Origin: an uncultured Actinomycetes bacterium
Lineage (GTDB): Bacteria > Actinomycetota > Thermoleophilia > RBG-16-64-13
Direction: 5' to 3'
Length of the DNA: 64,000 bases
Assembly: GCA_963706025.1 (NCBI GenBank)
Contig: CAVPLM010000008.1
Coordinates: 96,001-160,000 of the forward strand
Shown: one piece after another, positions 3,358-19,918 of the stretch
Layout of the letters: every line of letters begins with the position of its first letter
Position numbering within the stretch: the stretch's first letter is position 1
Translations under genes and position numbers: made by a program
Notes under the pieces: generated by a model
The model's input: the letters and a program-made list of their open reading frames with translations, nothing else
Databases searched by the model: none
Told to the model about the DNA's origin: nothing

Positions 3358-4277
3358 CCTCCTTCGACTCGACACAGGGGCCAAAGCAGTTGGTGGTCCT
3401 GAGCGGAAAAGGGGGCACCGGCAAGACCAGTCTGGTCGCGGCTCTGGCCACCTTCGTCCCCGACAAGGTCCTCGCCGACTGCGATGTCGACGCCGCCGAC
3501 CTGCATCTGGTGCTGGATCCTAAGCGCAAGCACAGGGAGCCCTTCGTCTCCGGCAAAGAGGCCCGCATCGCGCCGGAGCGCTGCAGCGCGTGCGGCCTGT
3601 GCATGGAGCACTGCCGATTTGACGCCGTCCACATGGCCCGATACAACGGCGGTCGGTCGGTCTATGCGGTCGATCATCTCGCTTGCGAGGGATGCGGGCT
3701 CTGCGCCCGGGTCTGCACGTCCGGGGCGGTGGATATGTTGGACGCCGAGCGCGGGGAATGGTTCGTCTCGGATACGCGCCACGGTCCCCTGGTGCATGCT
3801 CGACTCAACATCGGAGGGGAGAACTCGGGTAAGCTCGTCACCGTCGTCAGGAACCAGGCTCTGGCACTGGCTCAGGAGACGGGCGCCGGCCTAGTCCTCG
3901 TCGACGGTCCCCCGGGCATCGGTTGCCCTGTCATCGCCTCCGTCACGGGGGCGGACCTGGTACTGGCCGTGACCGAACCGACCGTCTCGGGGGCCCACGA
4001 CCTGGAACGGGCAGCCGACCTGGTGCGGGGTTTCGGCCTGCCCCTGGCGGTATGCATCAACAAGAGCGACCTCAACCCGGACATGGCCGAACGCATCAGT
4101 GACCTCTGCGCCGCCCGTGGATTCCCCGTGGTGGGTGAGCTGGACTACGATATCGCCGTGGTGCGGGCGCAGGTGGAGGGGAAGAGCATCGTGGAATACG
4201 GCCCCAGCGTGGTCGCCGATCAGATACGAAAGATGTGGGGAGTCCTGGAAAGCATGTTGAAGAAAGCGGAGGCATAG
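3354..4277 (+). CDS. MinD-like P-loop ATPase with inserted 4Fe-4S ferredoxin (paralog 2)
   Basis: SGKGGTGKT, DCDVDAADL, ferredoxin motifs, ENSGKLV, DGPPGIGCP. Confidence 0.9.
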   Translation: MTSFDSTQGPKQLVVLSGKGGTGKTSLVAALATFVPDKVLADCDVDAADLHLVLDPKRKHREPFVSGKEARIAPERCSACGLCMEHCRFDAVHMARYNGGRSVYAVDHLACEGCGLCARVCTSGAVDMLDAERGEWFVSDTRHGPLVHARLNIGGENSGKLVTVVRNQALALAQETGAGLVLVDGPPGIGCPVIASVTGADLVLAVTEPTVSGAHDLERAADLVRGFGLPLAVCINKSDLNPDMAERISDLCAARGFPVVGELDYDIAVVRAQVEGKSIVEYGPSVVADQIRKMWGVLESMLKKAEA

Positions 4278-4279
4278 AG

Positions 4280-5521
4280 ATGGATTGCACGCAGCCGGGC
4301 AACGACCGCGCGCTGGCGGTCAACGAGAGAATGGCTCACGTCAAGCACAAGATCATCGTCCTGTCCGGCAAAGGCGGGGTGGGCAAGAGCACGGTCGCGG
4401 TCAGTCTCGCCACTTCTCTCGCGCTCGAAGGCAAGCGTGTAGGGCTTCTGGACGTGGATCTGCACGGACCGACCGTCCCCCAGCTCATGGGTTTGAATGG
4501 TCACTCGGTGGTCACCGAGGGACAGGTCCTCGTCCCCGTCGAGGTGGGCGAGAGTCTCAAAGTCATGTCGATCGGCTTCTTGCTGGGCGAGCAGGACGGA
4601 GCCGTCGTGTGGCGCGGCCCCATGAAGGCGATCGCCATCGAGCAGTTCCTGGGAGAGGTCGAATGGGGTGAGCTCGACTATCTGATCATCGACTCGCCAC
4701 CGGGTACGGGTGACGAGCCGCTGGCGGTCTGCCAGGCCATCGGCAAGATGGACGGAGCCATCATCGTGACCACTCCACAGGAGACCGCGCTCAGCAACGT
4801 GCGCCGTTCGATCAAGTTCTGCGCGCTGCTCGACCTGAAGGTCCTGGGGGTCATCGAGAACATGGCCGGCTTCGTCTGTCCGCATTGCGGGGAGGTCACC
4901 AACGTCTTCAGCAAGGGCGGCGGAGCCACGATGGCGGCCAAGGCCGGCGTCCCTCTGCTGGCCACGGTACCTCTCGATCCCACTATCGTCGAGGCGGGCG
5001 ACGCCGGCCGGTCCTTTGTCTATCACTACTCGAAGAGCCCTGCCGCCCAGGAGTTCGCCAAGGCCGTGGGCCCCATACTTGCCCTTGACGAGGACACATC
5101 TGTTGAGGCCACGCCGGCGGGAAGCCGCGGCCCAGAGGCTGACCGCGTTGATGCGGTCCCGGTCGCAGAGGTCGACTCCGTTCTCCGTTTCGCCGTTCCC
5201 ACCAGTGACGGACTCCTCTGTCCCCACTTCGGCCACTGCCAGGAATTCACCCTCATCGACGTCGATGCGCCGTCGAAAAAGGTGCTCGGCCTGACCAGGG
5301 TCCCCGCTCCCGAGCACGAACCCGGGCTGCTTCCCGCCTGGCTGGCCGACAAAGGAGCCGGCTTCATCATCGCCGGAGGGATGGGTTCGCGGGCCCAGCA
5401 GTTGTTCGCCGAGCAGGGGGTGACCGTCGTCACCGGTGCGCCCATGGCCGAGCCGGAGACCATCGTCCAGCAGTTTTTGGACGGCGCTCTGGTGATCGGG
5501 GATAACGTGTGCGATCACTGA
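4280..5521 (+). CDS. Mrp/NBP35 (ApbC) Fe-S carrier ATPase fused to C-terminal NifB/NifX domain (MrpORP-like)
   Basis: GKGGVGKS, DSPPGTGD, ENMAGFVCPHC; C-terminal HFGHC..HEPG..GGMG..NVCDH. Confidence 0.92.
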   Translation: MDCTQPGNDRALAVNERMAHVKHKIIVLSGKGGVGKSTVAVSLATSLALEGKRVGLLDVDLHGPTVPQLMGLNGHSVVTEGQVLVPVEVGESLKVMSIGFLLGEQDGAVVWRGPMKAIAIEQFLGEVEWGELDYLIIDSPPGTGDEPLAVCQAIGKMDGAIIVTTPQETALSNVRRSIKFCALLDLKVLGVIENMAGFVCPHCGEVTNVFSKGGGATMAAKAGVPLLATVPLDPTIVEAGDAGRSFVYHYSKSPAAQEFAKAVGPILALDEDTSVEATPAGSRGPEADRVDAVPVAEVDSVLRFAVPTSDGLLCPHFGHCQEFTLIDVDAPSKKVLGLTRVPAPEHEPGLLPAWLADKGAGFIIAGGMGSRAQQLFAEQGVTVVTGAPMAEPETIVQQFLDGALVIGDNVCDH

Positions 5522-5539: not shown

Positions 5540-5971
5540 GTGGATGGAGAAGAGCCCGGACGCGCAAGGTTATACCTGGATCCCGTCCTCGAGCACTTCT
5601 TGCGTCCCCGTAACGTGGGTGAGATCGCCGATGCCGATGGCGTAGGAGTCGTGGGTGATCCCGAGTGCGGTGACTACTTCAAGGTCTGGATCCGGGTGGA
5701 GGGCGATGTGCTTGCCGAGGTCAAATACAAGGTCTTGGGCTGCCCCGCGGCCATAGCCACCTGCAGTATGATGAGTGAGTTGGCCACGGGAAGGAGCGTC
5801 GATGAGGCTTATGAGCTGGACGACCTTGATATCATGCATGCTCTGGGAGGGCTGCCAGAGTCCAAGCAACACTGCTCCAACCACGCGGCGTCAGCCTTGC
5901 ATGAGGCTATCGATGACTTCGTATTCCGGAAACCAGCAAGACAACGGGCGGTGACCGAGGATGGGCCCTGA
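5540..5971 (+). CDS. IscU/NifU-like Fe-S scaffold
   Basis: HFLRPRNVG, ECGD, GCPAAIA, KQHCS. Confidence 0.9.
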   Translation: MDGEEPGRARLYLDPVLEHFLRPRNVGEIADADGVGVVGDPECGDYFKVWIRVEGDVLAEVKYKVLGCPAAIATCSMMSELATGRSVDEAYELDDLDIMHALGGLPESKQHCSNHAASALHEAIDDFVFRKPARQRAVTEDGP

Positions 5972-6467
5972 TCAAGGCGGGACTCGAGGCCGAGGCAGGC
6001 GAGGAGCGGGACCAGGCTCCTGCGGCGGACCGGGCGGCGGACCGGGCGGCGGACCGGGCGGTGGCCCAGGCGGTGGCCCAGGCGGCGGCCGCTATCGGAG
6101 ATCGGTGCTCGAAGTGGCGATACTTTCCTCGCTCGCCCAGTCCACTGCCCACGGATACAACCTGGTGGATCAGATCGAGGCTCTCACTGGGGACTTGATC
6201 TGCATCGACCCGGGAAGTATGTATCGTCTCCTACGCGCCATGGAGGAAGAGGGGCTGCTCAGTTCGTCGTGGCAGACGCCTGAAGCGGGCCCCAGCCGAC
6301 GAGTCTACGCAATCACCGAACGAGGCATCGAGGCACTAGAGCTCGTAGCGAGGTCCCTTTCGCAGAGAGCGGCTTCCATGCAGCAACTCGCTGATCATGC
6401 TGCTCAGGCTGTTGCCAGGTTCCGCGCTGCCGGTCTAGTCGCAGATGCGGGTACTCCGCAGCGGTAG
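5961..6467 (+). CDS. PadR family transcriptional regulator with Gly-rich N-terminus
   Basis: HGYNL, PGSMYRLLRAMEEEGLL, GPSRRVYAITERG. Confidence 0.88.
   Translation: MGPDQGGTRGRGRRGAGPGSCGGPGGGPGGGPGGGPGGGPGGGRYRRSVLEVAILSSLAQSTAHGYNLVDQIEALTGDLICIDPGSMYRLLRAMEEEGLLSSSWQTPEAGPSRRVYAITERGIEALELVARSLSQRAASMQQLADHAAQAVARFRAAGLVADAGTPQR
6024..6089 (+). repeat. 12-bp in-frame tandem repeat (GGPG) x5 in PadR
   Basis: ggcggaccgggc x3 then ggtggcccaggc x2. Confidence 0.9.
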
Positions 6468-8432: not shown

Positions 8433-8822
8433 ATGAACGAACAACCGGTGAAATCGACCATGCGTGTGACGAAGGCTCTGGCCGATCCTCAGCGTGTCCG
8501 AATCTTGCTGCTTCTACGCCGCGGTGAGCTGTGCGTATGCCAGATCGTCGAGGTACTCGAACTCGCTCCTTCCACCATCTCCAAGCACCTCTCTCTTCTG
8601 GCCGCTGCCGCCCTCGTTGAGGTGCACAAGCAGGGACGCTGGGCGTACTACCGACTGCCCGACGGGGACGCCGGCCAATTTCTCAGTCCACTGCTTGAGT
8701 GGTTGACACTAGCTCTGCGGGGCGACGAGACGATCGAGCAAGACGCACGCACCTTGGATGAGGTCCTGGCCCTCTATCCTGAAGAGGTTGCGCGTAATCA
8801 GAGGGCGCGTGCCCATGAGTGA
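8433..8822 (+). CDS. arsR: ArsR/SmtB family repressor
   Basis: KALADPQRVRIL..ELCVCQI..STISKHL..GRWAYY. Confidence 0.9.
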   Translation: MNEQPVKSTMRVTKALADPQRVRILLLLRRGELCVCQIVEVLELAPSTISKHLSLLAAAALVEVHKQGRWAYYRLPDGDAGQFLSPLLEWLTLALRGDETIEQDARTLDEVLALYPEEVARNQRARAHE

Positions 8823-8935
8823 AGCTCAGGCGGAGTCTCTCTCTTCGACCAACTGCGCGATGGTCGTTCCCTGGAACAACTCTTCGAGTAGATCGGTTGC
8901 TTTCATCCAGAAGGGGCGGACACCCGGGGTAAGAC

Positions 8936-9991
8936 CTAGACAGGGACCTCCAACTCCCACAGCAACTTCGCAAGAGCATCCGTCAGATCACTTGGCAACG
9001 GGCTGCACTGCACTAAGGCTCGCGCCGTATCGAGCGTCTTGCCACACATGGATTCGGTCAGCGCCTGCAGGTCGATCTGACGGGGCAGCAAGAAGTCGCC
9101 TTGCACGTCCACCCTTCGCAGAATGGGCCCGTCCAGGTCGACGACGAGGGTCAGCACTCCACTGGGGGTCTTGGTGGAGAGGACCGACGTGTACGCCAGC
9201 CGGGGGTGGAACGTCCATTCCGGGCGTGCATACTTCACCTTGTACAATTCACCCGTGCGAGCGCGTTCCTCTCTCAAGAGTTCTCCCGGAACCAGCCTGA
9301 TCTCAAGCCGATCCGCGAGGTGCCTCGTGAGTTTCTCCATCACCTCATGCACTTGGATCAACCGGTCGGCCGCCTCGCTCAGCGTGATGACCCGATCTCG
9401 AACAGTGTCGATCCCCTTGTCGGCGAACTTCAGCCGCGACGGCCGGAGCGCTTTCTCCATCACTGCGCAATCTGTGGAAACGAGGAAGGTGCCGCTGTGC
9501 ACGAAGGCCTTGCCCCACTCCACCTGCGCGGAACCGTAGACCTTGCGTCCGCCAACAGTGCAGTCGTTCGTCGGTGAATGGGCCGCCTCCACGCCATATT
9601 CCGCGCACGTATCGACCACGGCGCGTGCGACTATCGGGTAGAGTTCGGCTGCTTCAGCTATTCCCATTCGGTCGAACAACTCCTTATGCCGGAAGAAAAG
9701 CGAGAAGCAGAAGCTCCCCTCATCCTGGTATACGGCACCTCCGGGGTTGTGGCGCCGCACGACGGGTATGCTCTTGCTCCGGCAATACTCCAGATCCACG
9801 TCTTCCTCCGGCACCTGATAGACGCCGATCCAGACTGAAGGCACTACTTGGCGTAGGCGAAGAGTGTCGGGACTGGTCCCTTCATCGACGCCACGCAGCA
9901 GGGCCTCCTCCACGGCAAAATGCCGGAAGGGGCCCTTGATGCCGTCGAACAGTAGCCGGAATGGAGGCCTAGTTGGTGTGGAAGTAGACAC
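8936..9991 (-). CDS. lplA: Lipoate-protein ligase (catalytic plus C-terminal accessory domain)
   Basis: VVRRHNPGGAVYQD, ND..RKVYGSAQ, HSGT; C-terminal QGDFL domain. Confidence 0.88.
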   Translation of the reverse strand: MSTSTPTRPPFRLLFDGIKGPFRHFAVEEALLRGVDEGTSPDTLRLRQVVPSVWIGVYQVPEEDVDLEYCRSKSIPVVRRHNPGGAVYQDEGSFCFSLFFRHKELFDRMGIAEAAELYPIVARAVVDTCAEYGVEAAHSPTNDCTVGGRKVYGSAQVEWGKAFVHSGTFLVSTDCAVMEKALRPSRLKFADKGIDTVRDRVITLSEAADRLIQVHEVMEKLTRHLADRLEIRLVPGELLREERARTGELYKVKYARPEWTFHPRLAYTSVLSTKTPSGVLTLVVDLDGPILRRVDVQGDFLLPRQIDLQALTESMCGKTLDTARALVQCSPLPSDLTDALAKLLWELEVPV

Positions 9992-10691
9992 AGCGTTCCC
10001 TCTTACATTCCTCGGTCACTTGGGAGAACGCGCAGTGGATCACGTCCGAAACGACAAATGCGACCCCTAGTTCGCTGCTCATGAATCCCGCGGCAGCCTG
10101 AAGCGTGGCGTACACGCTCTGTTTGCAGCAACGTGGACCACCGAGTTGGGCTGCGTCCATCAACGCGCGGGCAGTCCCTCGCAGGGCCAGTGACCGCTCC
10201 CGGTCCGAACGGAACGTGGCCCCGGTCAGAAGAGAGACCGCACAGCCCAGGCCGGCACAGGCTCCGCAGTCACCCCTTGTGCCGCATACGCCTACCGGTA
10301 TATCTCCCATCCGACGGAGGGCAGCCCGGATTGCACCTTTTCGCACCGAGCAACCTTGATTCCGTAGCGCCGCCAGAATCGTAGGCGCCACCAGCAGATG
10401 ATGCTCGGGACCATGTTGATTGAACACAGGGTGCTTCATGATGAGGTCGACGATCTCGAGCGGGTCCGGGTTCGTGGTTGCCACGCACAGGCGCTCGATG
10501 ATTTCCTCGGAGGATGCCGTCCTGCAGCTCTCGCAGACATAATGGCCCTGGGGGCAGAGCCATTCACACCTCTCCTCGGCCCCGCAATATGAACAGGTCT
10601 GCAGTCGCGATTTCTCCAGCAGCTCAACGCCGCAAAGGGGACAATAGAACGCTACCGGGACCTGCCACTCCCCTCCAGGAATAGTCTCCAC
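9969..10691 (-). CDS. DUF5714-like Cys-rich protein with N-terminal Zn-finger motifs
   Basis: CPLCG, CSYCG, CPQGHYVCESC, HGPEHH, CGTRGDCGAC, GGPRCCKQ. Confidence 0.8.
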   Translation of the reverse strand: METIPGGEWQVPVAFYCPLCGVELLEKSRLQTCSYCGAEERCEWLCPQGHYVCESCRTASSEEIIERLCVATTNPDPLEIVDLIMKHPVFNQHGPEHHLLVAPTILAALRNQGCSVRKGAIRAALRRMGDIPVGVCGTRGDCGACAGLGCAVSLLTGATFRSDRERSLALRGTARALMDAAQLGGPRCCKQSVYATLQAAAGFMSSELGVAFVVSDVIHCAFSQVTEECKRERCVYFHTN

Positions 10692-10692
10692 C

Positions 10693-11028
10693 CTACTCCT
10701 GCCAACCTTCCGGTCCCTTTGCCAACTCCTCGCGTATCCTGGCATCGACCTTCCGAGACTCCGGCACCACCTGTTTAGTGACCAAGCGTCCATTGATATA
10801 GACGGCCGGAACCCGACAATACTTCCTCTGGGCCCGATAGGACACGGTCGTCGTCACAGGCGGTGTTTGTCCCCACACATAGACGTCCAACCGCACGAGG
10901 TCGGGAAAGCGACGCGTCATCTCCTCCATCACCGCCACGGTGGCCCGACACTTCTGCGTGGGCGGGCCGGCGATGACCACTTCCAGTCGCAGACGCTTTT
11001 GTGGCCTATTCTTATTCACAGCAGTCAC
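10693..11028 (-). CDS. Thioredoxin-fold protein (TxxC)
   Basis: LEVVIAGPPTQKC..VPAVYING..VP. Confidence 0.7.
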   Translation of the reverse strand: MTAVNKNRPQKRLRLEVVIAGPPTQKCRATVAVMEEMTRRFPDLVRLDVYVWGQTPPVTTTVSYRAQRKYCRVPAVYINGRLVTKQVVPESRKVDARIREELAKGPEGWQE

Positions 11029-11130
11029 TTGTCAGTTCTCCTGGAGCTGGGCCGTTATTCACGGTGGTCGGCTTGTCCGCCCTGTGACCACGTGCGGAGG
11101 AACATCACGGGTCGGGGTTGGATCTTGACG

Positions 11131-12560
11131 CTAGGGGCACCGTATCACCCCGTGGCTCCACAAACATGCTCCGCAGCGCGGGAAGGTGTCGTCCTCGCAG
11201 TCCTCCTCGTTGCCGTCAGACATGCTGCAGCCTCCGCAGGCGACGCAAGGGCGAAGTCGAAGTCCTGGACCCTCTTGCGAAAGGCGACATAATCGGGATC
11301 AGACCAGATATCCGTGAGACTCCGCTCGTTTAAGTGGCCGATCGCGTAGCGGTCGACGCGGCGTATTCGACGAAATAGCAGCTCCTCATGCGTGTGCACC
11401 AACGCCTGACAGGGACTGACGTTGCCCTCCCAAGAGACCGATGTGCTTCCCGCCTCGATGAAAGGGCAGCGCCTGGTGATCCCGCCCACATCTGTTCCAA
11501 GAAGCGTCGCTTCATGTCGGCCGTGAATCACCACCCAGAGAGGTCTCCGCGTGGTCTCAGTCACGTCCATGGGCGGCAGTCTTAATGCGTCGGGCCACGG
11601 GGTCGGTAGCGGCGCTATTCCGAGGGAGTCCTCGTAGAGGATCTCGGAGAGCAGCTCTCGGGTGTAAGGGATGACGTTGCTGATATTGAATCGGCTGGCT
11701 CCGACTAGTCGTCCGATCCAAAGGAGGAAGGGGAGATCGGTGATGTTTCGCTTCATGGCCACGAAGGCGATGCCGATCTCGGGGGCCGGACGGGAGCCTC
11801 TAGTATCTTGGAGATGTGTAGACGAGGTGGTGAAGACCGTGGAGCTGTCGTCCTTCAAATCCCGTACGAGGTCCAAGAGGTAGCGTTCCATGGATACGTA
11901 TTGGTCAACGAGCCCTCGGACCAGTCCCCAGCCCGGAAGTTCGTGCGGTTCGGGAAGGCTGGAGCAGTCACACAACCGGCGGCGGACTTCTCTGAACCCC
12001 CGCAAGTTCTCCAGCACCTGGGGGAGCAAGGCGCCCAGGCGCACATCGCTGTAGCTCTCAGGACGGATGCCGTCCAGCGATACCCAGAGAGTATCGAGAC
12101 CGGCCTCAATCAGGGAGCGGGAGGTCTCTTCGCTTAGGAGGCAGCCGTTGGTTATGAGTTCGACTTTGGGGGAGCCCAGATCCTTCACCCGAGCCACCAT
12201 CTCCAGGATCCCGGGATGGGCCAGGGGCTCGCCGAACCCGCCGAAAAACACAGCTGGCAAACGATCGAAGGCCGCAAGTCCTTCAAGCAGGCGAGTGAAG
12301 GTCTCCTCGCTCATGTCGCCCAAAGGTTCTGCCCAGGCATTTCGGATGCAGGTGCGGCAGGTGAGGTTACAGCGGCTGGTGGGCTCCACATACACTTTGG
12401 CCAGCTGCTCTACCGGGCGGCGGAGACGGGCGCTGTTGGGCTCCTCATCCAGGGTGACCGAAATTCCCGGACGTAGGCCCAGGCGGTTTGCCACTTCAGG
12501 GGGAAGCACCAACCGACCATCGGTATCGACGGTAGCTATGAGGTGGTCAAGAAGGTTCAA
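11131..12560 (-). CDS. AbrB-like N-terminus + radical SAM + SPASM protein (tungsten-oxidoreductase maturase-like); frameshift near 11250
   Basis: CNLTCRTC, GGFGEPL, ITNG, CPFI..VSPC; restoring one C gives APCVACGGC..DC..CGACLWSHGVIRCP* ending at 11131. Confidence 0.85.
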
Positions 12561-12578
12561 GACAGGCCGCCGCTGCCA

Positions 12579-12977
12579 TCAAGTGGGAACACACGAGCCT
12601 CCCGCGGCACACGTCTTCACTGCGAGCCAGTGCTGGAGCCGCTCATCAAGGGCGGATAGAACCTGCGGATCCAAGGCCTCTCTAGCACTCGCCAGAATGG
12701 CACGTAGCGGAGGTTCAAGATCATCGGCCAACCGGTAGTAGATCCACACGGCTTCCCGACGATCGTCAACCAGTCGCGAGTTCAAGAGGTAGTGCAGGTG
12801 GCGCGAGGCCTTTGACTGGGTGATATCAAGCGCATGCTCAAAGTCACAGACGCACAACTCCGCATGCTCAGCGAGCAGGACCACCATCTGTATGCGGGTT
12901 TCATCGGACAGGGCCTTGAGCTTCCCTGCCAGTTGACGCGCATCCGAGGAAGGGTGTGTCATCGAATCCTCACACAC
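12579..12977 (-). CDS. arsR: ArsR/SmtB family repressor
   Basis: KALSDETR..ELCVCD..QSKASRHL; extra C-terminal Cys pair CAAGGSC. Confidence 0.9.
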   Translation of the reverse strand: MCEDSMTHPSSDARQLAGKLKALSDETRIQMVVLLAEHAELCVCDFEHALDITQSKASRHLHYLLNSRLVDDRREAVWIYYRLADDLEPPLRAILASAREALDPQVLSALDERLQHWLAVKTCAAGGSCVPT

Positions 12978-12998
12978 TTCGACTCAATTTGCGCTACC

Positions 12999-13013
12999 AT
13001 TATAACCGTTCAA
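12999..13013 (-). promoter_or_regulatory. -10 promoter element of arsR (TTGAACGGTTATAAT)
   Basis: Perfect TATAAT; near-identical motif upstream of the third arsR at 18676-18690. Confidence 0.55.
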
Positions 13014-13075
13014 GCGTGTGTACGCGAGGACGGCATGATCAGTAACTCCAGTCGCGGCGAAACGCGTGGGAGGCT

Positions 13076-14434
13076 ATGAAGCGTCTTTCTTTTCTTGACA
13101 GGTTCTTGACCCTGTGGATCTTCCTGGCCATGGCCATCGGCGTGGTGGCCGGCTACCTCTGGCCCCAGATCGGCAAGGCCATCGAGAGCGCGTCTATCGG
13201 CACCACCTCGATCCCCATCGCCATCGGTCTTATCGTCATGATGTACCCGCCGCTCGCGAAGGTCCACTACGAGGAATTGGGAGACGTCTTCCGCAATACG
13301 AAGATCCTGGGGCTTTCGCTGGTGCAGAACTGGATCATCGGTCCCATCCTCATGTTCTTCCTGGCCATTTTGCTCTTGTCCGACAAGCCGGGACTCATGC
13401 AAGGCGTGATCATGATCGGACTGGCCCGCTGCATCGCCATGGTCATCGTCTGGAACGAGCTGGCCAAGGGGGATAGCGAGTACGCTGCCGGACTGGTGGC
13501 CTTCAACTCGGTGTTCCAGGTGCTGTTCTACTCGGTCTACGCCTACGTGTTCCTCACCGTTCTGCCCGGCTGGTTCGGGTTGGAAGGGACGGAGGTGGAC
13601 GTGAGCATGGCCGAGATCGCGAAGAGCGTGGGTATCTACCTGGGCATCCCGTTTGTCGCCGGTATCCTCACCCGGTTCACTCTGCTGCGCTTCAAGAGCA
13701 AAGAGTGGTACGACCACGAGTTCATCCCCCGCATCAGCCCCATCACCCTGATCGCCCTACTGTTCACCATCCTGGTGATGTTCTCGCTCAAGGGCGAGAT
13801 CATCGTGCAACTGCCGCTGGACGTCGTGCGTGTGGCCATTCCTCTCTTGATCTACTTCGTGGTCATGTTCTTTGTCAGCTTCTACATGGGCAAGAGGGTG
13901 GGCGCCGACTATCGCAAGAGCACCACTCTTGCCTTCACGGCCGCCTCCAACAACTTCGAGTTGGCCATCGCAGTTGCCATATCCGTATTCGGACTGGCTT
14001 CGGCCCAAGCCTTCGCGGCCGTCATCGGTCCCTTGGTGGAGGTGCCGGTCATGATCGGCCTCGTCAACGTGGCCTTCTGGTTGCAGCGACGATATTGGCC
14101 GGCCAGGGAAACGGACACGGCGCCTGCGGTGGTGGGCGCGGAAGGGCAGGATCTTGGCTGTCCGACCGATGATCGGCCGTACAATCCAAGACACATACCA
14201 AGACGGGAGATGAATGATGTCACAAGGCAAGGACCAAGAGACGGTCCACGAAGCCGTGCGCGACCGGTACGCGGAGATCGCGAGAACAGGCTCATCGTGC
14301 TGCGGCGGTTCGCCCTGCTGCGGTCCAGCGCCGGCGGACGAAGAGGGCGACGAACTGTATCTCGCCCGCAAGGTAGGTCACACCGAGTCGCTCAAGCTTG
14401 GCTACACCGAGGAGGAACTGGCGGCGGCACCTGA
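13076..14434 (+). CDS. acr3: ACR3 family arsenite efflux transporter (true end probably near 14170-14210)
   Basis: [48 protein letters not shown]; the ORF tail overlaps arsM by about 220 nt. Confidence 0.95.
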
Positions 14435-15050
14435 GGGAGCCAACCTGGGCCTGGGCTGCGGCAATCCGCAGGCCATTGCGGACTTGAAGCCGGGAGAAGT
14501 GGTGGTGGATCTGGGTGCCGGTGCAGGTTTCGACTGCTTCCTCGCCGCCCGGGCGGTCGGCTCGGATGGTCTCGTGATCGGTGTGGACATGACCCCAGAG
14601 ATGGTAGGCACGGCCCGTGAGATCGCGAGGAGCTCCGGATACGAGAACGTCGACTTCCGTCTGGGCGAGATCGAGCATCTGCCGGTACCCGACGAGACGG
14701 CAGACGTGGTCATCTCCAACTGTGTGATCAACCTATCTCCGAACAAGCCGGCGGTCTATGAGGAAGCCTTCCGGGTGCTCAGGCCGGGGGGACGTCTGGC
14801 AGTGAGCGATGTTGTGGCCACGGCTGAGCTACCGCAGGAATGGCGGGACGACATGCGCCTGCTTTCGGCCTGCATCTCGGGAGCCGCCACCACGAGGGAG
14901 GTTGAAGAGATGCTTCGGGCGGCGGGTTTCGTGGACATCGCCATCCGTCCCAAAGAGCAAAGCCGGGAGTTCATCCAAGAATGGGAACCAGGGAGAAACC
15001 TCGAGGACTACGTCCTCTCTGCCAACATCTGCGCGACGAAACCCCAATAA
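14214..15050 (+). CDS. arsM: Arsenite S-adenosylmethionine methyltransferase
   Basis: [32 protein letters not shown]; N-terminal CC..CC. Confidence 0.95.
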
Positions 15051-15088
15051 CGACCTGACGCGACAACGGAGAGGAGACGTGAGAGGGG

Positions 15089-15823
15089 ATGAGGCGAACG
15101 ATCGAGACTCTGGCGCTCTTCTCTGACGTGCACGGGAACCGCCTCGCCCTCGAGGCAGTCCTCGACGACCTGCGGGCCCGAGAGATCACCAGGATCTGCT
15201 GCCTGGGTGATCTGGTCGGATACGGCCCCGATCCCAACGGGGTGATCGACCTGATTCGTAGCCAGGGCATCGACAGCATCCTCGGAAACTACGACGAAGG
15301 GGTCGCCTGGGAGACGGGCGATTGCGGCTGCTTCTATGCGGATGCGGAGGCCAAGCGCATCGGCGAGGCGTCTTATGCCTTCACCGTCGCCACGGTGACG
15401 GCCGAGAGGAAGGCCTATCTGCGCACCCTGCCGCGGGAGCTGCACGTGGACCTCGCCGGCAAGAAGGTCCACTTGGTGCATGGCAGTCCCCGGCGCATCA
15501 ACGAATACCTCTCCCGTGACCGCGACGAACGGACCTACCGGCGACTGGCGGAAGCCGAATCGGATGACGTCCTCGCCTTCGGACACACCCACGACCCCTG
15601 GTTCCGCCGGTACGGAAAGACGTTGTTCGTCAACGTGGGTTCGGCCGGGCGACCCAAAGACGGGGACCCTCGAGCCGCCTATGTCCTCTTAAGGTCGTCC
15701 ACCGAAGTACCGGTGGACGTAGAGATCGTCCGGGTCGCGTACGATGTAGAGGCTGCGGCCGACGCAGTCCTTGCCGCCGGTCTGCCGGCCACGCTCGCCG
15801 AAATGTTGCGGCGCGGAAACTGA
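15089..15823 (+). CDS. Metallophosphoesterase (YfcE-like), ars-operon associated
   Basis: SDVHGN, LGDLVG, GNYD, DCGC, HGSP, GHTH, NVGSAG. Confidence 0.9.
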   Translation: MRRTIETLALFSDVHGNRLALEAVLDDLRAREITRICCLGDLVGYGPDPNGVIDLIRSQGIDSILGNYDEGVAWETGDCGCFYADAEAKRIGEASYAFTVATVTAERKAYLRTLPRELHVDLAGKKVHLVHGSPRRINEYLSRDRDERTYRRLAEAESDDVLAFGHTHDPWFRRYGKTLFVNVGSAGRPKDGDPRAAYVLLRSSTEVPVDVEIVRVAYDVEAAADAVLAAGLPATLAEMLRRGN

Positions 15824-15948
15824 GCAAGGAGACACTCTCAATGGACCCACGCGCAGCCCACGCCACCAGCATCTGGAGATCGACATCCACCGGTCGGGGC
15901 GCGGATGGTCGTGATAGTCGTCGCACTTATTGTGGAGGTTGAGGACTG

Positions 15949-16374
15949 ATGGCCGAGACAGCGGAAGAACTGGAAACCACCGAGAGCAAGCAGCAACGAC
16001 CCGGCCTGATCATGTGCGTCTGCACCGGCAAGTGCCCGGGATTCGAGAAGATGGACATCTGGGACTTCATAAATCGAGTGCGGATCGAATTGCCGGTCGA
16101 ATTCGGGATGATCCATCCGCAACTCTGCGAGGAAGACGGGGACCGTTTCTTGGCCGACTTTCTCCAGGCCAAGCGGCCGTTGGTCATTGCTGCCTGTGCC
16201 CCCAACATGCAGTACAAGATGTTCCGGGACGCCTTCGCCGCCGAGGGCATGGACGTGAAGAAGGATATGGTGCCTCTCGACATCCGCGACATGACCACCG
16301 ACGAGGCGGTTGAGAAGGTGGCGGCAGCGCTGCGCGACATGGGCATCGACGAGGACGGTGGCGAGGATGGCTGA
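15949..16374 (+). CDS. Stand-alone HdrA N-terminal-like Fe-S domain protein
   Basis: MCVC, HPQLC, VIAACAP..MFR..DIR parallel the HdrA N-terminal CHC / C / VVAACSP..FR..NIR pattern. Confidence 0.7.
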   Translation: MAETAEELETTESKQQRPGLIMCVCTGKCPGFEKMDIWDFINRVRIELPVEFGMIHPQLCEEDGDRFLADFLQAKRPLVIAACAPNMQYKMFRDAFAAEGMDVKKDMVPLDIRDMTTDEAVEKVAAALRDMGIDEDGGEDG

Positions 16375-16675
16375 GACCACTTTCATGGGAGTGCCGCGCA
16401 GCAAGATCCCGTGGGCTCCCACCATCGACTACGACAAGTGCGACTTCTGCATGGAGTGTGACGAGTTCTGCCCGCACCGGGTCTTCGAGCGGCGAGAAGG
16501 CGACGTCAAGCTCGTGGTAGCCAATCCCGACAACTGCGTGGTGTTCTGCCGGGCCTGTGCCAAGACCTGCGGCCCCGACGCGCTCTCGTTCCCCGACAAG
16601 CCGGAGACCGTGGCCCTCATCAAGAAGCTGCATGCGGCGGAAGGCGAGTCGCGCACCGAGGAGGGCGGGGCATGA
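16367..16675 (+). CDS. 4Fe-4S ferredoxin
   Basis: IPWAPTID..CDFCMECDEFCP..NCVVFCRACAKTC. Confidence 0.88.
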   Translation: MAETTFMGVPRSKIPWAPTIDYDKCDFCMECDEFCPHRVFERREGDVKLVVANPDNCVVFCRACAKTCGPDALSFPDKPETVALIKKLHAAEGESRTEEGGA

Positions 16676-17532
16676 GCTACGCAGTCCTTGCCTGCACGGG
16701 TCTCGACAAGGCCGAGGGTTCGGTGACCCGCGAAGTGGCCATCCGCCTGGCCCAGGAGACTGGAGCCGAGATCGTCTGCCCGGTCGTGCTCAACCGCACC
16801 CCTGCCCGATACAAGAAGACACTGGCCGAGAACCGGCTAATCGTCGTCGACGGGTGCGCCACGCAGTGTGCGAGTAAGCTCGCCGCGGCCAAAGGAACGA
16901 AACCGGCCCAGAAGGTGATCGTTTCCGATGTGGTCAAGAAATCAGGTGGCGCCCTTGAACCTGACCTCCGCCTCGGCTCCGATGCTCTCGAGCTTGCCCG
17001 GAAGATCGTCGACGACATCAAGGCAGCTGAGACTGCCGAATCCAAAGAGACGCGGGCAGCCAAGGAAGCACCGGCGGAGGCGGAGTTTGAAAGCCCATCG
17101 GATTTCACGGTAGTCGTCTACGACAAGTACGAGTTCCGCGTCCCCTTGACCGGATTCTTCTTCAACGCTAACGACGTCTGGGCGCAGGTGGCCGGAAGCA
17201 GGGCCCGAGTGGGCATCTCCGACTACATGCAGCAGCGGCTCACGGATATCACCTACGTGGACCCGCCCGACGTCGGCACGACCATCGAGCAATTCGACGA
17301 GGTGGGCACTGTCGAGTCGACCAAGGCTACCTTCGAGGTAGTCTCCCCTGTGAGCGGCACGGTCGTGAAGATCAACGAGGCGGTGACAGACGTGCCCGAG
17401 TCGATCAACGAAGATCCGTACGGCAGCTGGATCGTCGAACTGGAACTGACCTCTTGGGAGGAAGACCAGGCGTTACTGGTCGATGGACCGGCGTACGCCG
17501 CCGACGTGGAGCGCAAGGCCGCCGAAGACTAA
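16672..17532 (+). CDS. DGC putative Zn-binding domain fused to GcvH-like lipoyl-carrier domain
   Basis: N-term ACTG..VCP..DGCATQC; C-term RVGISDY..DITYV..GTVESTKAT..SPVSG..INEDPYG.W with the lipoyl Lys intact. Confidence 0.88.
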   Translation: MSYAVLACTGLDKAEGSVTREVAIRLAQETGAEIVCPVVLNRTPARYKKTLAENRLIVVDGCATQCASKLAAAKGTKPAQKVIVSDVVKKSGGALEPDLRLGSDALELARKIVDDIKAAETAESKETRAAKEAPAEAEFESPSDFTVVVYDKYEFRVPLTGFFFNANDVWAQVAGSRARVGISDYMQQRLTDITYVDPPDVGTTIEQFDEVGTVESTKATFEVVSPVSGTVVKINEAVTDVPESINEDPYGSWIVELELTSWEEDQALLVDGPAYAADVERKAAED

Positions 17533-17547
17533 AGAGCGAGAGGACTC

Positions 17548-17967
17548 ATGGAAAACGACTGCGACAAGGTGCTGGTCATCCCCTGTAGCGGCATCGGCAA
17601 AGTCCACGGGCTCATCAGCCGGGAGTCCGCCTACCTGGTCACCGATGAGCTGGCGCCGGGAGAGACCGACGTGGTCTGCTTGGCGCTTCTAGTGAAAGAA
17701 GATGAAGAGACCCGGGCCGAAGTGCAGGCGCACCCCTGCATCACCATCGATGGCTGCGGCAAGGCCTGTGCTCAGAAGAACGTGGAGATCGCCGGAGCAA
17801 AGGTGGCTGAAGCCTTTCAGGTGGCCAGATTCCTGAGCAGCCACCGGGGAGCCCAGCCGGGCAGCGGGTCGGAGCTGACCGAAGAGGGCTGGGCCATCAG
17901 CCGGGAGATCGCTGAAGCCGTGGCCGCAGAGGCCGCTCGCCTCCGCGCAGGTGAGGAGGTGGCCTGA
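17548..17967 (+). CDS. DGC domain putative Zn-binding protein
   Basis: PCSG..VCL..IDGCGKAC. Confidence 0.88.
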   Translation: MENDCDKVLVIPCSGIGKVHGLISRESAYLVTDELAPGETDVVCLALLVKEDEETRAEVQAHPCITIDGCGKACAQKNVEIAGAKVAEAFQVARFLSSHRGAQPGSGSELTEEGWAISREIAEAVAAEAARLRAGEEVA

Positions 17968-18659
17968 TGTCCGCCGAAATGAACAAGGCCACCAAGGTGG
18001 GGATCATCTCCTGCAGTGGCGAGGAGATCCCCGAAGGCACCATCTCGCGCAGTGCCGTCCGCCGGGTGCTCGAGTCCCTGCGTCCTCACGATGCTGTCAC
18101 TCTCTGCTTGCCGCTGTTCTTGGCCGGTAACGAAGGCGAGCGCAACTTCGCTCGGACCCACCCCACGATCACTATCGATGGGTGCGACAAGCAGTGCGCG
18201 CGGTGGGGCACTGAGAAACACGGCGGGCCCGTTGCGCGTGCGTTGGTGGTCTCGGAAATCTTGGGCACTGAGGCAGCAGGCTGTTCACGCTCCTTGCGCG
18301 GGCGTGGGCAGGCCGACGAGACGGCCGTTGCTGCTGTGGCCGACCGGATAGCGGCCGAGGTCGACGCGCTCATGAGCGAAGGCGTGAAACCGCAAATGGC
18401 AGAGGACCCAGAGGCGGACGTATGCGCCTGCATGAAGCCTGCGCCGACGGGATCCGTCTGCGTGCGCGGAAAGCAGGTGGAGATAAACGCTTTGCCCATG
18501 GTCTTCGCCAAGTTGGCTTCCGATGGGATGCGGGCAGAGGACTCGAACGCTTCGGCTCTTCTCGAGACGGTGAAGATGTTCCACTACATCGCTCCTGAAG
18601 AGGAGTCGGACTACCGGGATGCCCTCCTCGCGGCGTACCGAGCCTTCGTTGGAGGTTGA
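17967..18659 (+). CDS. DGC domain protein with extra C-terminal domain
   Basis: SCSG..LCL..IDGCDKQC, then CACMK and an approximately 80-aa helical domain. Confidence 0.85.
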   Translation: MSAEMNKATKVGIISCSGEEIPEGTISRSAVRRVLESLRPHDAVTLCLPLFLAGNEGERNFARTHPTITIDGCDKQCARWGTEKHGGPVARALVVSEILGTEAAGCSRSLRGRGQADETAVAAVADRIAAEVDALMSEGVKPQMAEDPEADVCACMKPAPTGSVCVRGKQVEINALPMVFAKLASDGMRAEDSNASALLETVKMFHYIAPEEESDYRDALLAAYRAFVGG

Positions 18660-18675
18660 TCCAGCAAACAACCGT

Positions 18676-18690
18676 TTGTACAGTTATAAT
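18676..18690 (+). promoter_or_regulatory. -10 promoter element of third arsR (TTGTACAGTTATAAT)
   Basis: TATAAT at 18685-18690; motif shared with 12999-13013. Confidence 0.55.
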
Positions 18691-18722
18691 TCGCCGAGTC
18701 GAGAGTTCGGGAGCTACGGAAT

Positions 18723-19097
18723 ATGGATACCCTGAGCGACACGTTCAAGGCGTTGTCCGACGAAACGCGCGTACAGATCATGACGCTTCTCTTGGAGCAT
18801 GACGAGCTATGTGTGTGCGACTTCGTCGGTGCGCTGGGCCAGACACAGTCGAAAGTGTCACGTCATCTCCGCTATCTCTACCACGCCGGGCTGGTGCGGG
18901 ACCGCCGAGAAGGGCTCTGGATGCACTACCGCGTCTCCCCCGATCTCAGGCCGGAGCAGGCGACCATCTTGGCTGCGCTTTCCGAGGCGGTCGGTGAAGA
19001 GCGAAAGAAGGAACTGCGTCAAGCGCTGGAACGGTGGTTCGCGCAGAAGGCATCGACTGGTGAGGCGGGAGGGCAAGAAGCGGCGTCCTGCTGTTAG
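18723..19097 (+). CDS. arsR: ArsR/SmtB family repressor with C-terminal CC
   Basis: FKALSDETR..ELCVCD..QSKVSRHL; ends ASCC. Confidence 0.92.
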   Translation: MDTLSDTFKALSDETRVQIMTLLLEHDELCVCDFVGALGQTQSKVSRHLRYLYHAGLVRDRREGLWMHYRVSPDLRPEQATILAALSEAVGEERKKELRQALERWFAQKASTGEAGGQEAASCC

Positions 19098-19132
19098 CGG
19101 GCCGCAATGCTGGACATGGAAGGTGGAGGGTC

Positions 19133-19390
19133 TTGATCGAGGTCAAGGTTTTCGGTAGCGAGCCGCCCTGCGTGAAGTGCAAGCAGGCGGAAGGGGAAGC
19201 CAGGAAGGCGGCGGAGAAGTTCCCTGGCCAGGTAACGGTGGCGAAGCATTCGGCCCTTTCCCCGGAAGGGCTGGGACTGGGGCTCATGATGACGCCCGCG
19301 GTGGTTGTCAACGGCAAAGTGATCTCCCAGGGCCGCGTCCCGCAAGAGAGCGAACTCGAACGTATCTTTCGATCAGAACTAGGAGGGTGA
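19133..19390 (+). CDS. Small thioredoxin-like redox protein (CVKC)
   Basis: VKVFG..PPCVKC..MTPAVVVNGK..GRVP. Confidence 0.85.
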   Translation: MIEVKVFGSEPPCVKCKQAEGEARKAAEKFPGQVTVAKHSALSPEGLGLGLMMTPAVVVNGKVISQGRVPQESELERIFRSELGG

Positions 19391-19391
19391 C

Positions 19392-19667
19392 GTGCCTGTG
19401 CTTATGGAAGTGTTCAGCGGAGATCCGCCCTGCCCCGGCTGCGTCGCCATCCTGGCGATGGGAGACCGGTACGCCCAGAAGTACCCGGCGGAGGAGCTGA
19501 CGGTCAAGAAGTACGTCGGTCGGGAGGCGCTCGAGAAGTACGAGGAATACAACCTCTCCTGCGTGCCGGCGGCCGTCATCAACGGCGTTATCAAGATAGA
19601 AGGAACGGCTCCAGATGAAGGCACAATGAACAACGCGCTCCGGGAGGGCGGGCTATGGATCCGATAA
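19392..19667 (+). CDS. Small thioredoxin-like protein (CPGC)
   Basis: EVFSGDPPCPGC..VPAAVING. Confidence 0.82.
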   Translation: MPVLMEVFSGDPPCPGCVAILAMGDRYAQKYPAEELTVKKYVGREALEKYEEYNLSCVPAAVINGVIKIEGTAPDEGTMNNALREGGLWIR

Positions 19668-19918
19668 AGGTGGAGGTCTTTCTTTCGGTGCCTGCTTGCT
19701 CCGGCGGCGTTGCGGTCCGGCGGTTGATCGATGATGTCGCCGCGGAGTACGGCGACCAGATGGATGTCGTCTATCACCAGGGCCGCGACGAGCGCTACGA
19801 GGAGCTGAAGCTGTCTTCCGCCCCGGCGATCATCGTCGGTGATCTGGTGCGTTTCATCGGATTATGCCCCACCAAGGAAGGCTTGATCGGTGCGCTGAGA
19901 GAAGCCGGGCTGGAGTAG
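19655..19918 (+). CDS. Small thioredoxin-fold protein (single active-site Cys, CSGG)
   Basis: VEVFLSVPACSGG..APAIIVG..GLCP. Confidence 0.75.
   Translation: MDPIKVEVFLSVPACSGGVAVRRLIDDVAAEYGDQMDVVYHQGRDERYEELKLSSAPAIIVGDLVRFIGLCPTKEGLIGALREAGLE

Follow-up and report, generated by a model that had tools for sequence, protein, structure and literature searches.

Why should a putative lipoyl carrier, a lipoate-protein ligase and iron-sulfur proteins be encoded among the arsenic resistance (ars) genes of an uncultured actinobacterium? The question is raised by positions 8433–19918 of a 64,000-nucleotide stretch of contig CAVPLM010000008.1 (assembly GCA_963706025.1; Actinomycetota, Thermoleophilia), the whole of which we call the window. 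Here a protein with a DGC domain fused to a GcvH domain, the carrier, and an LplA-type ligase are encoded on either side of genes for the regulator ArsR, the efflux permease Acr3 and the methyltransferase ArsM. We regard these genes as parts of a conserved, undescribed system whose function we infer from gene content and neighbourhood. Our reading is that the region is an arsenic-responsive island of three parts: an ArsR-Acr3-ArsM core and two modules that together would run a redox relay with probable arsenical binding, and we consider this reading as a whole evenly balanced between right and wrong. Module A would comprise a small protein resembling the N-terminal domain of heterodisulfide reductase subunit A (HdrAN), a two-cluster ferredoxin, the DGC-fused GcvH carrier, two further DGC proteins (DGC2 and DGC3) and ArsE-like thioredoxins. 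Module B would comprise a DUF5714 protein, the dedicated ligase and a thioredoxin-like protein (TrxL), accompanied here by a radical SAM/SPASM enzyme.

A scan of one genome per species gave 142 pattern matches, 80 of which encode a relative of the fusion, and all 80 loci were analysed; neighbours within 10 kb were identified by tblastn with the window proteins and with representatives of recurrent neighbour clusters. The loci span six phylum-level groups, with 41 in Acidobacteriota, 21 in Actinomycetota (Gaiellales, Thermoleophilia and unclassified), 11 in Chloroflexia/Anaerolineae, two each in Armatimonadota and Moorella/Neomoorella, and one each in Dehalococcoidales, Lokiarchaeum and Acutalibacteraceae (the last with plain GcvH only). 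DGC2 and DGC3 are each encoded in 77 loci, the ferredoxin, directly ahead of the GcvH gene, in 68, and HdrAN in 65, and module A has one fixed order on one strand. In the Actinomycetota the genes run Acr3-ArsM-(MPE)-HdrAN-Fdx-[DGC-GcvH]-DGC-DGC-ArsR-Trx-Trx-Trx (MPE, metallophosphoesterase; Fdx, ferredoxin; Trx, thioredoxin; square brackets enclose the fusion), ArsR holding the same position after DGC3 across these loci. The Acidobacteriota order is ArsR-ArsE-like Trx-HdrAN-Fdx-[DGC-GcvH]-DGC-DGC-LplA, followed by CMD, ArsF-ArsG, ChrA, CDF or RND genes, and that of the Chloroflexia is ArsR-GcvH (unfused)-DGC-DGC-OsmC-Trx-(ArsC)-Acr3, after which come genes for an Fe-S protein and a radical SAM protein. 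Moorella and Lokiarchaeum have the five-gene core plus ArsR, with Acr3 in addition in Moorella. Genes of the OsmC or CMD (AhpD) families lie within 10 kb in 28 of the 80 loci; in the gene orders their place is directly after DGC3 or its ligase.

The association of this cassette with arsenic genes is extensive. ArsR is encoded in 62 of the 80 loci, and in each of the 62 one or more copies contain CxC, usually as CVC (CxC is found in 74 of the 77 ArsR matches). Acr3 (at least 50% identity) is present in 31 loci, ArsM (at least 40% identity) in 22, ArsC in 13, ArsF in 18 and ArsG in 19; one or another of these five is found in 52 of the 80 loci (in 35 when the count is confined to the 52 loci with 9 kb to either side), and all 11 Chloroflexia-type loci carry Acr3 in the same gene string. 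An ArsE-type thioredoxin is encoded in 64 loci, and if ArsE-like thioredoxins are included, 73 of the 80 loci have an ars gene. Recurrent neighbour families exceed the curated NCBIfam cut-offs for ArsE, ArsF and ArsG, as does a thioredoxin representing the Chloroflexia loci for the ArsE family TIGR00412 (L091; 87.8 bits against a cut-off of 62). The five loci lacking an ars-type neighbour include one that is 2.5 kb long, one that ends at the fusion gene and the one with plain GcvH. We estimate, with no computed control, that a 20-kb stretch of a 3–6 Mb genome would be co-located with an ars gene by chance in about 1% of cases; the arrangement is not a chance one because it recurs in 80 genome loci and in the 79 metagenome loci described below. 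The first-pass annotation of this DNA, made from the letters alone, had tied an orphan lipoyl carrier and ligase to ars genes and had suggested a gene-neighbourhood search. That search was positive, with a structural ars gene in 52, ArsR in 62 and a ligase in 36 of the 80 fusion loci, and the claim stands on these counts.

The distribution of the cassette is patchy, with three of 40 relatives carrying it, and may reflect gene transfer. According to record titles, many of the loci are from soil, peat, wetland and sediment bacteria or metagenome-assembled genomes, and cultured carriers of the cassette exist in Moorella/Neomoorella.

The carrier (16672–17532, + strand) matches GCV_H (PF01597; E 9.3e-30) and DGC (E 4.1e-19), and its lipoyl motif around K218 reads ESTKA. 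K218 and the cysteines C8, C36, C62 and C66 are invariant in 15 of 15 sequences. Of 5325 candidates scored, 734 are homologues of the fusion at E ≤ 1e-5, and among the 120 homologues listed, all have both domains, the DGC motif and the E-S/T-x-K lysine motif. The protein falls under the equivalog cut-offs for GcvH (TIGR00527, 95 against 115.85; NF002270, 112.5 against 117). GcvP, GcvT and a canonical GcvH (a 138-aa frame) sit on contig C5 of the assembly, outside the window, and three E2 genes and a second LplA/LipB-type gene are also on other contigs. The presence of the canonical GcvH and the second LplA/LipB-type gene elsewhere in the genome makes the carrier and ligase of the window extra copies.

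HdrAN (15949–16374, + strand; 141 residues) has no family match, and its assignment comes from fold. The AlphaFold2 (AF2) model has a pLDDT of 90.5, and the best seven matches in the PDB found by Foldseek are all chain A of HdrA (E 1e-5 to 2e-4; best 7bkb_A, E 1e-5), with MvhD chains lower in the list. The similarity covers approximately 100–127 aligned columns of chains of 643–664 residues, and a sequence search matches HdrAN to residues 3–93 of HdrA (7bkb_A). Residues C23, C25, C60 and C83 are in register with four cysteines of 7bkb_A that we take to bind a [4Fe-4S] cluster; in 27 homologues C60 and C83 are invariant and C23 is present in at least 90%. HdrAN is thus, on fold and cysteine register, a probable [4Fe-4S] carrier. 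Among 1.84 billion proteins its family numbers just 114 representatives at E ≤ 1e-3, and sequence features in the ESM Atlas group it with clusters of proteins of 125–145 residues, of which the best bears the automatic name ‘heterodisulfide reductase subunit A-like’. An antisense open reading frame (ORF) at 15838–16425 (− strand) was rejected as a gene, the + frame having both the confident HdrA-like fold and bacterial homologues 74–95% identical. HdrAN is the most conserved part of the cassette, with 74–95% identity across bacterial loci and 48% in Lokiarchaeum; the identity of the carrier is just 46–57% in Acidobacteriota, Armatimonadota and Moorella.

Between HdrAN and the carrier lies the gene for a 2x[4Fe-4S]-type ferredoxin (16310–16675, + strand; Fer4_7 and Fer4 matches) with an HgcB-like NCBIfam match (E 1.4e-9) under its cut-off, and the likely start is an internal Met near 16367. 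Downstream of the carrier, DGC2 (17548–17967, + strand; DGC E 1.4e-14) and DGC3 (17967–18659, + strand; DGC E 3e-16) follow. The fusion, DGC2 and DGC3 score 69, 54.5 and 59.8 bits, respectively, against a cut-off of 27 for DGC (PF08859). Invariant cysteines are C13, C70 and C74 in DGC2 and C16, C47, C73 and C77 in DGC3. The genome has seven DGC matches, and each belongs either to the window or to a further copy of the rightward operon, on contig C13. DGC3 also has a C-terminal extension (residues ∼135–230) carrying CAC, and a CxC-bearing extension is found in 53 of the 77 loci with DGC3 and is absent from Moorella, Lokiarchaeum and most Actinomycetota loci; it has no family match and no usable match in the ESM Atlas. 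Sequence searches of solved structures with DGC2, the DGC profile and DUF5714 returned nothing meaningful, and a complex prediction for the three DGC domains (score 0.19, mark 0.32) was counted neither way.

On the opposite strand, the ligase (8936–9991, −) matches the LplA-B_cat family (PF21948; E 7e-43) and scores 177.7 with the LplA equivalog TIGR00545, under the cut-off of 280. Residue K150, in the motif GGRKVYGSAQ, does not vary among the 17 homologues aligned, and we take the conserved lysine of the GRK..GSAQ motif to be the functional lysine of the LplA/LipB catalytic domain. Among 8000 candidates scored, 199 are homologues at E ≤ 1e-20, from many anaerobe lineages. That this is a housekeeping enzyme was considered and rejected, as the best match in the 40 relatives is 32% identical and the genome has another LplA/LipB-type gene. 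A metagenome scan with the ligase gave 213 pattern matches, 83 of which encode a relative; 80 were retained, representing 79 distinct loci. DUF5714 precedes or adjoins the ligase in 72 of the 79 and TrxL accompanies it in 66, with Acr3 (20 loci), ArsC (11), ArsM (11) and a radical SAM gene (9) nearby. DUF5714-LplA-TrxL is therefore a separate conserved triad, often beside ars genes and sometimes beside module A. GcvH-DGC-DGC genes are near it in seven or eight of the 79 loci, and each GcvH-like gene near the triad is of the DGC-linked kind. In the 20 loci that have 5 kb at either end, module A adjoins the triad six times, some of these being duplicates of one sequence, and is not nearby in the other 14. 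The leftward operon as written in the first-pass annotation (arsR, radical SAM, thioredoxin fold, DUF5714, ligase) is not conserved; the radical SAM gene is found at seven of the 80 genome loci and nine of the 79 metagenome loci, and the conserved unit is the triad instead.

Of the 80 loci, 36 have a lipoate ligase of some kind at most 10 kb from the cassette, and 35 of these are among the 41 of Acidobacteriota. The acidobacterial enzyme is a 250-residue catalytic-domain gene (LplA-B_cat) that follows DGC3 in the gene orders; the cluster of 250-residue ligase ORFs is on the cassette strand at a median of 1.9 kb downstream in 31 loci. Two distinct ligase lineages have been recruited beside the same carrier, and no other computational result speaks as strongly for its lipoylation.

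In the window, DUF5714 (9969–10793, − strand; PF18978, E 2.9e-50) is a Cys-rich protein with N-terminal zinc-ribbon-like CxxC pairs, and its NCBIfam MbdU-like match (142.9 bits) is under the cut-off of 600. The true start is probably near 10660, later than that of the listed ORF, because homologues are ∼226 aa long and begin just ahead of the first CxxC. TrxL (10693–11028, − strand) is a monothiol thioredoxin-like protein in which PPTxxC replaces CxxC; it has no Pfam or NCBIfam match and was assigned by hhalign against the Thioredoxin_3/ArsE-like alignment (probability 96.1%, E 3.2e-9). The radical SAM/SPASM protein (11145–12560, − strand; Radical_SAM E 2.9e-14, SPASM E 7.5e-11) has an AbrB/MazE-like N-terminus and scores 230.8 with TIGR04317, under the cut-off of 380.

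The arsenic core is canonical by comparison. Acr3 (13076–14434, + strand; TIGR00832 464.2 against 282.8, residues 4–333) and ArsM (14214–15050, + strand; NF008823 342.6 against 263) exceed their curated NCBIfam cut-offs, and ArsM has an N-terminal Cys pair plus further Cys residues. ArsR1 (12579–12977, − strand; HTH_5 E 2e-11, NF033788 85 bits against 55) is the first gene of the leftward operon, and the divergent arsR1/acr3 intergenic region (12978–13075), defined by coordinates, is the presumed control region. ArsR2 (18723–19097, + strand; HTH_5 E 9.7e-16, NF033788 95.4 bits), with a C-terminal CC, follows DGC3, and a third ArsR (8433–8822, + strand; Pfam HTH_5 E 1.2e-15, NF033788 92 bits against 55) is convergent with the ligase gene. 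All three contain CVC, as ELCVCDF in ArsR1 and ArsR2 and ELCVCQI in the third; CVC in the DNA-binding region of ArsR is presumably a metalloid site, and we take ELCVCDF/L to be the classical As(III)-type motif. Three Thioredoxin_3 (ArsE/MTH895-like) proteins close the rightward operon on the + strand, namely Trx1 (19133–19390; CVKC; E 9.4e-15), Trx2 (19392–19667; CPGC; E 5.8e-7) and Trx3 (19655–19918; single Cys; E 8.1e-5). All three are below the cut-off of 62 for TIGR00412, with Trx1 at 52.7 and Trx2 at 21.5.

From these parts we propose the following mechanism. Entry of As(III), or of a related soft metalloid, would cause the CVC-type ArsR repressors to release both divergent operons, and the ligase would lipoylate K218 of the carrier. 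Reduced ferredoxin would be the electron source for the lipoyl disulfide, with the HdrAN cluster and the Cys-rich DGC proteins as intermediates, a reduction that would need neither NADH nor Lpd. The dihydrolipoyl arm so formed would be a protein-bound dithiol from which the ArsE-like thioredoxins would draw reducing power, with OsmC-like and AhpD-like partners, ArsC or ArsM as further recipients in other genomes. It would probably also take up arsenicals because As(III) binds such dithiols tightly. The sequences themselves establish the gene content and order, the linkage to ars and ArsR genes, the HdrA-like fold and the conservation of the lysine and cysteines; lipoylation, induction, Fe-S centres in the DGC proteins, the direction of electron transfer and its acceptors are predictions drawn from them. 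Relay and capture are compatible, reduction being needed for binding. A redox relay with probable arsenical binding ranks first among the readings we considered, and we think it could equally well prove right or wrong; it is suggested by HdrAN and ferredoxin ahead of the carrier, the flanking ArsE-type thioredoxins, the OsmC and CMD neighbours, and an ArsM/AhpD-domain fusion family contained in NCBIfam. Ohr/OsmC and AhpD (CMD) proteins take electrons from lipoylated proteins, according to a review (PMC8945050). Regeneration of ArsM, which the first-pass annotation had offered as one possible purpose of such a relay, was rejected as the core role because ArsM is present in only 22 of the 80 loci.

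Several observations weigh against the relay. Three relatives have the fusion without a ligase of the window type, a ligase is missing from the 10-kb surroundings of 20 of the 21 Actinomycetota loci, and the whole genomes behind two loci (L013 and L016) have no ligase at E ≤ 1e-10 with the ligase alignment, so that a housekeeping pathway would have to serve there. HdrAN and ferredoxin are absent from the 11 Chloroflexia-type loci, so that not every cassette can draw on ferredoxin. Where AhpD has CxxC the CMD neighbours have SxxC, and in the OsmC-like proteins of Chloroflexia the second of the usual cysteines is missing. The DGC part of the AF2 model of the fusion has a pLDDT of ∼40; hhalign gave probabilities of 0.4, 0.1 and 1.7% for a relation of DGC to HdrAN, DsrE and MvhD of the same genome (a weak test for DsrE and MvhD, each a single sequence), and with no detectable relation to any of them an electron-carrier role for DGC is a guess. 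The four DGC cysteines could bind Zn or As instead of an electron-carrying centre. Since As(III) would poison a dithiol acting as donor, capture is favoured over relay on this point. In Acidobacteriota the cassette also adjoins CDF, RND and chromate transporter genes, so part of the ars association may be a general clustering on metal islands, and the sole match in an RNA library is a handful of short contigs, perhaps from DNA carry-over.

Capture without an electron-delivery role is the alternative closest to the relay. In this account the reduced lipoyl arm, perhaps with the DGC cysteines and the CxC tail of DGC3, would bind As(III) or methylarsenite (MAs(III)) as a decoy or for hand-off to Acr3 or ArsM, the ferredoxin and HdrAN only keeping the dithiol form. 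Trivalent arsenicals bind dihydrolipoyl groups tightly, and here a dithiol cofactor, a known arsenite target, is set under an arsenite-type repressor, the cassette being placed with CVC-type ArsR in 62 of the 80 loci. The Lokiarchaeum cassette stands alone with ArsR and should therefore protect by itself, the host of the window encodes three E2 enzymes and the glycine cleavage system, all of which would benefit from protection, each DGC domain has four invariant Cys, and CxC recurs in the DGC3 extension (53 of 77 loci). Stoichiometric sequestration would nevertheless be costly, no release step is evident, Acr3 is found in only 31 of the 80 loci, and the OsmC-like or CMD neighbours (28 of 80) and ArsE-like thioredoxins suit an electron donor better; we consider capture possible but doubtful. 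A fuller version is similarly tentative, in which the lipoyl arm would be a protein-bound dithiol antidote, reduced by ferredoxin via HdrAN and DGC, that captures As(III) and especially two-coordinate MAs(III), shields the lipoyl enzymes, and hands its load via the DGC and CxC cysteines to ArsM or Acr3.

Three further accounts were considered. By analogy, the extra carrier and ligase might form a lipoyl reservoir that resupplies or replaces arsenic-blocked lipoyl groups on E2 and GcvH, resembling the GcvH-L/LplA2 operon of Staphylococcus aureus and target-overproduction genes such as folE in ars operons, and module B does stand without module A nearby in 14 of the 20 loci that have flanks of 5 kb. 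We think this unlikely: it leaves the ferredoxin, HdrAN and three DGC domains unexplained, the cluster ORFs and ten flanking ORFs scanned include no LipL-like amidotransferase, SirTM or macrodomain gene, and replacement is not obviously needed because As(III) binding to lipoyl groups is reversible. GcvH-L and LplA2 of S. aureus are reported to protect against oxidative stress and to control lipoyl transfer to E2 subunits (PMC12440151), and folE in an ars operon is reported to give resistance through raised supply of the poisoned pathway (PMC9144182). The cassette might otherwise be a general module for thiol, peroxide or soft-metal stress that is merely co-located with ars genes, its ArsR-family sensors responding to Cd, Sb or persulfide. 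CVC sites also occur in Cd/Pb sensors, the OsmC and CMD neighbours point to peroxide defence, and CDF, RND (RND/HlyD/OEP) and chromate transporter (ChrA) genes neighbour the cassette in 10, 13 and 12, respectively, of the 41 Acidobacteriota loci; ArsR-type repressors moreover control the sHdr sulfur system (PMC12423496). Against this are the operon-level order with Acr3, ArsM, ArsE, ArsF and ArsG, which recurs in four unrelated lineages, the invariable place of Acr3 in the Chloroflexia-type string, and ELCVCDF/L beside the cassette in Actinomycetota loci, and we rate such a module improbable. Least likely of all, and hardly to be expected, is a sulfur relay or thio-arsenic chemistry in which DGC proteins would carry persulfide sulfur to or from the lipoyl arm, making or breaking thioarsenicals. 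The parts do parallel those described for sHdr-LbpA (a GcvH-like carrier, a ligase dedicated to it, an Fe-S protein related to Hdr, three small paralogous Cys proteins and a regulator of the ArsR type), and many loci come from soil, peat and wetland metagenome-assembled genomes; hhalign, however, detects no relation of DGC to the DsrE of the same genome (a single sequence, and so a weak test), and the Pfam scans of the cluster contain no HdrB/CCG, rhodanese or TusA.

How far the redox relay with probable arsenical binding is foreshadowed by described systems can be seen by comparison. One of the closest is sHdr-LbpA/sLpl(AB) (PMC6067878, PMC10332631), which has an orphan GcvH-like carrier outside glycine cleavage, a nearby dedicated ligase, an Hdr-related Fe-S part, small Cys proteins and an ArsR-family regulator. 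Unlike that system, the cassette has only the 141-residue HdrA-N-like protein, its carrier is fused to DGC, and its neighbours are ars genes rather than sulfur-oxidation genes. Pfam and NCBIfam scans of the cluster found no flavin domain, HdrB/CCG, HdrC, DsrE, TusA or LipS1/S2, and the nearest DsrE match is ∼18 kb upstream of the window. The S. aureus GcvH-L/LplA2/SirTM/macrodomain operon likewise pairs a second GcvH-type carrier with its own ligase for stress defence (PMC12440151), there against an oxidative burst, whereas the cassette has Fe-S and DGC partners and, through ArsR, a putative arsenic signal; SirTM and macrodomain genes are missing from the Pfam scans of the cluster and its flanks. 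On sequence families, then, the cassette lacks the defining features of sHdr-LbpA and of the GcvH-L/SirTM operon, and its carrier is under the GcvH equivalog cut-offs.

A protein-bound dihydrolipoyl donor to small Cys proteins is also found in the Lpd-SucB/DlaT-AhpD-AhpC and lipoyl-protein-Ohr/OsmC chains reviewed in PMC8945050. Those thiol peroxidase chains borrow E2 lipoyl domains and NADH/Lpd; the cassette, in contrast, encodes a separate carrier with ferredoxin and HdrAN, and the window itself has no OsmC or CMD gene. The ArsEFG organoarsenical pathway (Chen, Zhang and Rosen 2019, cited in PMC9144182) shares with the cassette its ArsE-family thioredoxins, which flank it in 64 of the 80 loci, with ArsF in 18 and ArsG in 19; as named, ArsEFG has no lipoyl carrier, DGC or HdrA-like component, and the window has no ArsF or ArsG. 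Handing As(III) to efflux by a Cys-based carrier is an idea that also recalls the metallochaperone-pump pair ArsD/ArsA. There is no sequence or family relation to that pair.

The layout of the window is consistent with the gene set proposed from the letters alone. When the window ORFs were searched against Pfam and NCBIfam, and with fold search and hhalign, all genes named in the first-pass annotation were recovered at or near the coordinates given there; its HdrA-N label for 15949–16374 agrees with the seven HdrA chains that head the Foldseek list, and its thioredoxin-fold label for 10693–11028 with the hhalign match to Thioredoxin_3. GcvP/GcvT and E2 genes, said to be absent from the window, do have their matches on other contigs (Lpd was not searched). 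The stated lack of arsC and arsA extends to the assembly, in which ArsC (PF01451, PF03960) was not found at 92% completeness despite two acr3-arsM clusters, and ArsA is represented by P-loop fragments only; ArsD was not searched. No arsenate reductase of a known kind was seen in the assembly. The limits of the island hold overall, with the qualification that 8433 is the start of the third ArsR gene on the + strand and not part of the leftward operon. The flanking ORFs encode unrelated proteins (Mrp/ParA-type, PadR and glucosaminidase on the left; hemerythrin and 2-hydroxyacid dehydrogenase on the right), so these limits are sound. The G+C content is high, at about 0.60–0.64 across the region, and from the ferredoxin through the last thioredoxin the genes overlap or are separated by gaps of at most 63 nt. 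Between arsM and HdrAN lies a calcineurin-like metallophosphoesterase gene (15089–15823, + strand; Metallophos_2 E 2.4e-26), with homologues in eight of the 80 loci and the ArsM-MPE-HdrAN position in seven Actinomycetota loci.

The assembly (3.66 Mb in 30 contigs, 92% complete, 7.3% contamination) carries indel errors, which may touch the locus. GcvP matches in two pieces and GcvT in three, in different frames (C5:737449–738622; C5:1049585–1050324), which suggests that indel errors are frequent. The 3′ end of the radical SAM gene is probably frameshifted near 11248, through an assembly indel of 1 nt or a difference between strains: DNA runs X2 and X4 contain contigs with an extra G behind 11248, and a CxxCxxC...CxxC stretch (11145–11300 region), read as the SPASM C-terminal cysteines, continues in another frame. 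In runs X1, X2 and X4, 1-nt deletions occur at 14166–14192 within the Acr3 ORF, which extends ∼100 residues beyond the family match with an arginine-rich tail overlapping the start of arsM; the Acr3 sequence past residue ∼345 is doubtful. No inverted repeat that might be an ArsR operator was found in the four intergenic stretches examined, and promoter and terminator scans, including 12978–13075, were at chance level. In run X20, a sediment metatranscriptome, short contigs are 97–100% identical to arsM, DGC2, DGC3 and arsR2 (14768–19692), with less similar short contigs on acr3 and Trx2/3. These give a weak hint of expression in a close relative and, as possible DNA carry-over, were not counted as proof of transcription.

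The second copy of the rightward operon (contig C13:2600–10930, locus L011) encodes Acr3-ArsM-MPE-...-HdrAN-Fdx-DGC-GcvH-DGC-DGC-ArsR-Trx x3 at 60–95% identity, broken into several frames; paralogy, strain variation or contamination of the bin could account for it. Its Acr3 gene is adjoined by a TrxL-like one, ligase, DUF5714 and radical SAM genes are missing, and ∼1.6 kb of unannotated DNA separates MPE from HdrAN. Upstream of the island in the window (2437–5521), a ParA ATPase of the Mrp/NBP35 type is fused to a Nitro_FeMo-Co domain, and a CbiA-like ATPase carries a 4Fe-4S dicluster insert; a PadR regulator is encoded at 5961–6467. Two MvhD/FlpD-family genes at C3:305262–305630 and C3:444967–445296, one within a 595-residue open frame, hint at anaerobic electron transfer of the Hdr/Mvh type in the host genome. 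Among the Chloroflexia/Anaerolineae loci (L081–L091), nine of 11 encode a PF04060 ‘FeS’ protein like the N-terminus of the ACS gamma subunit, most encode an Rv2578c-family radical SAM protein with an HHH domain next to it, and six of 11 have a conserved 194-aa ORF without a family upstream.

In the open full-text literature, which leaves out subscription papers and supplementary files, we found no DGC, GcvH or lipoate ligase placed in an ars operon and no paper mentioning DUF5714, and neither ‘arsen’ nor ‘DGC’ occurs in the main text of PMC10332631 or of a 2026 ligase-specificity preprint. The supplementary tables of lipoate-assembly surveys might list this carrier family.

Lipoyl enzymes are classical targets of trivalent arsenic, and we know of no arsenic defence that uses lipoate itself. 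If the reading proposed here is correct, a lipoyl carrier under ArsR control, served by its own ligase and by Fe-S partners, would be a new arsenic mechanism, would give the first functional leads for three uncharacterised families (DGC, DUF5714 and small HdrA-N-like proteins), and would provide anaerobes with a ferredoxin-driven route of lipoyl reduction. Were the carrier instead to prove a dithiol antidote, gene transfer would have carried through six or more phylum-level groups both the first lipoyl reductase that depends on ferredoxin and not on Lpd and the first metalloid chaperone based on a cofactor. Many carriers come, to judge by record titles, from soil, peat, wetland and sediment, habitats in which the mobilisation and methylation of arsenic matter for rice and groundwater.

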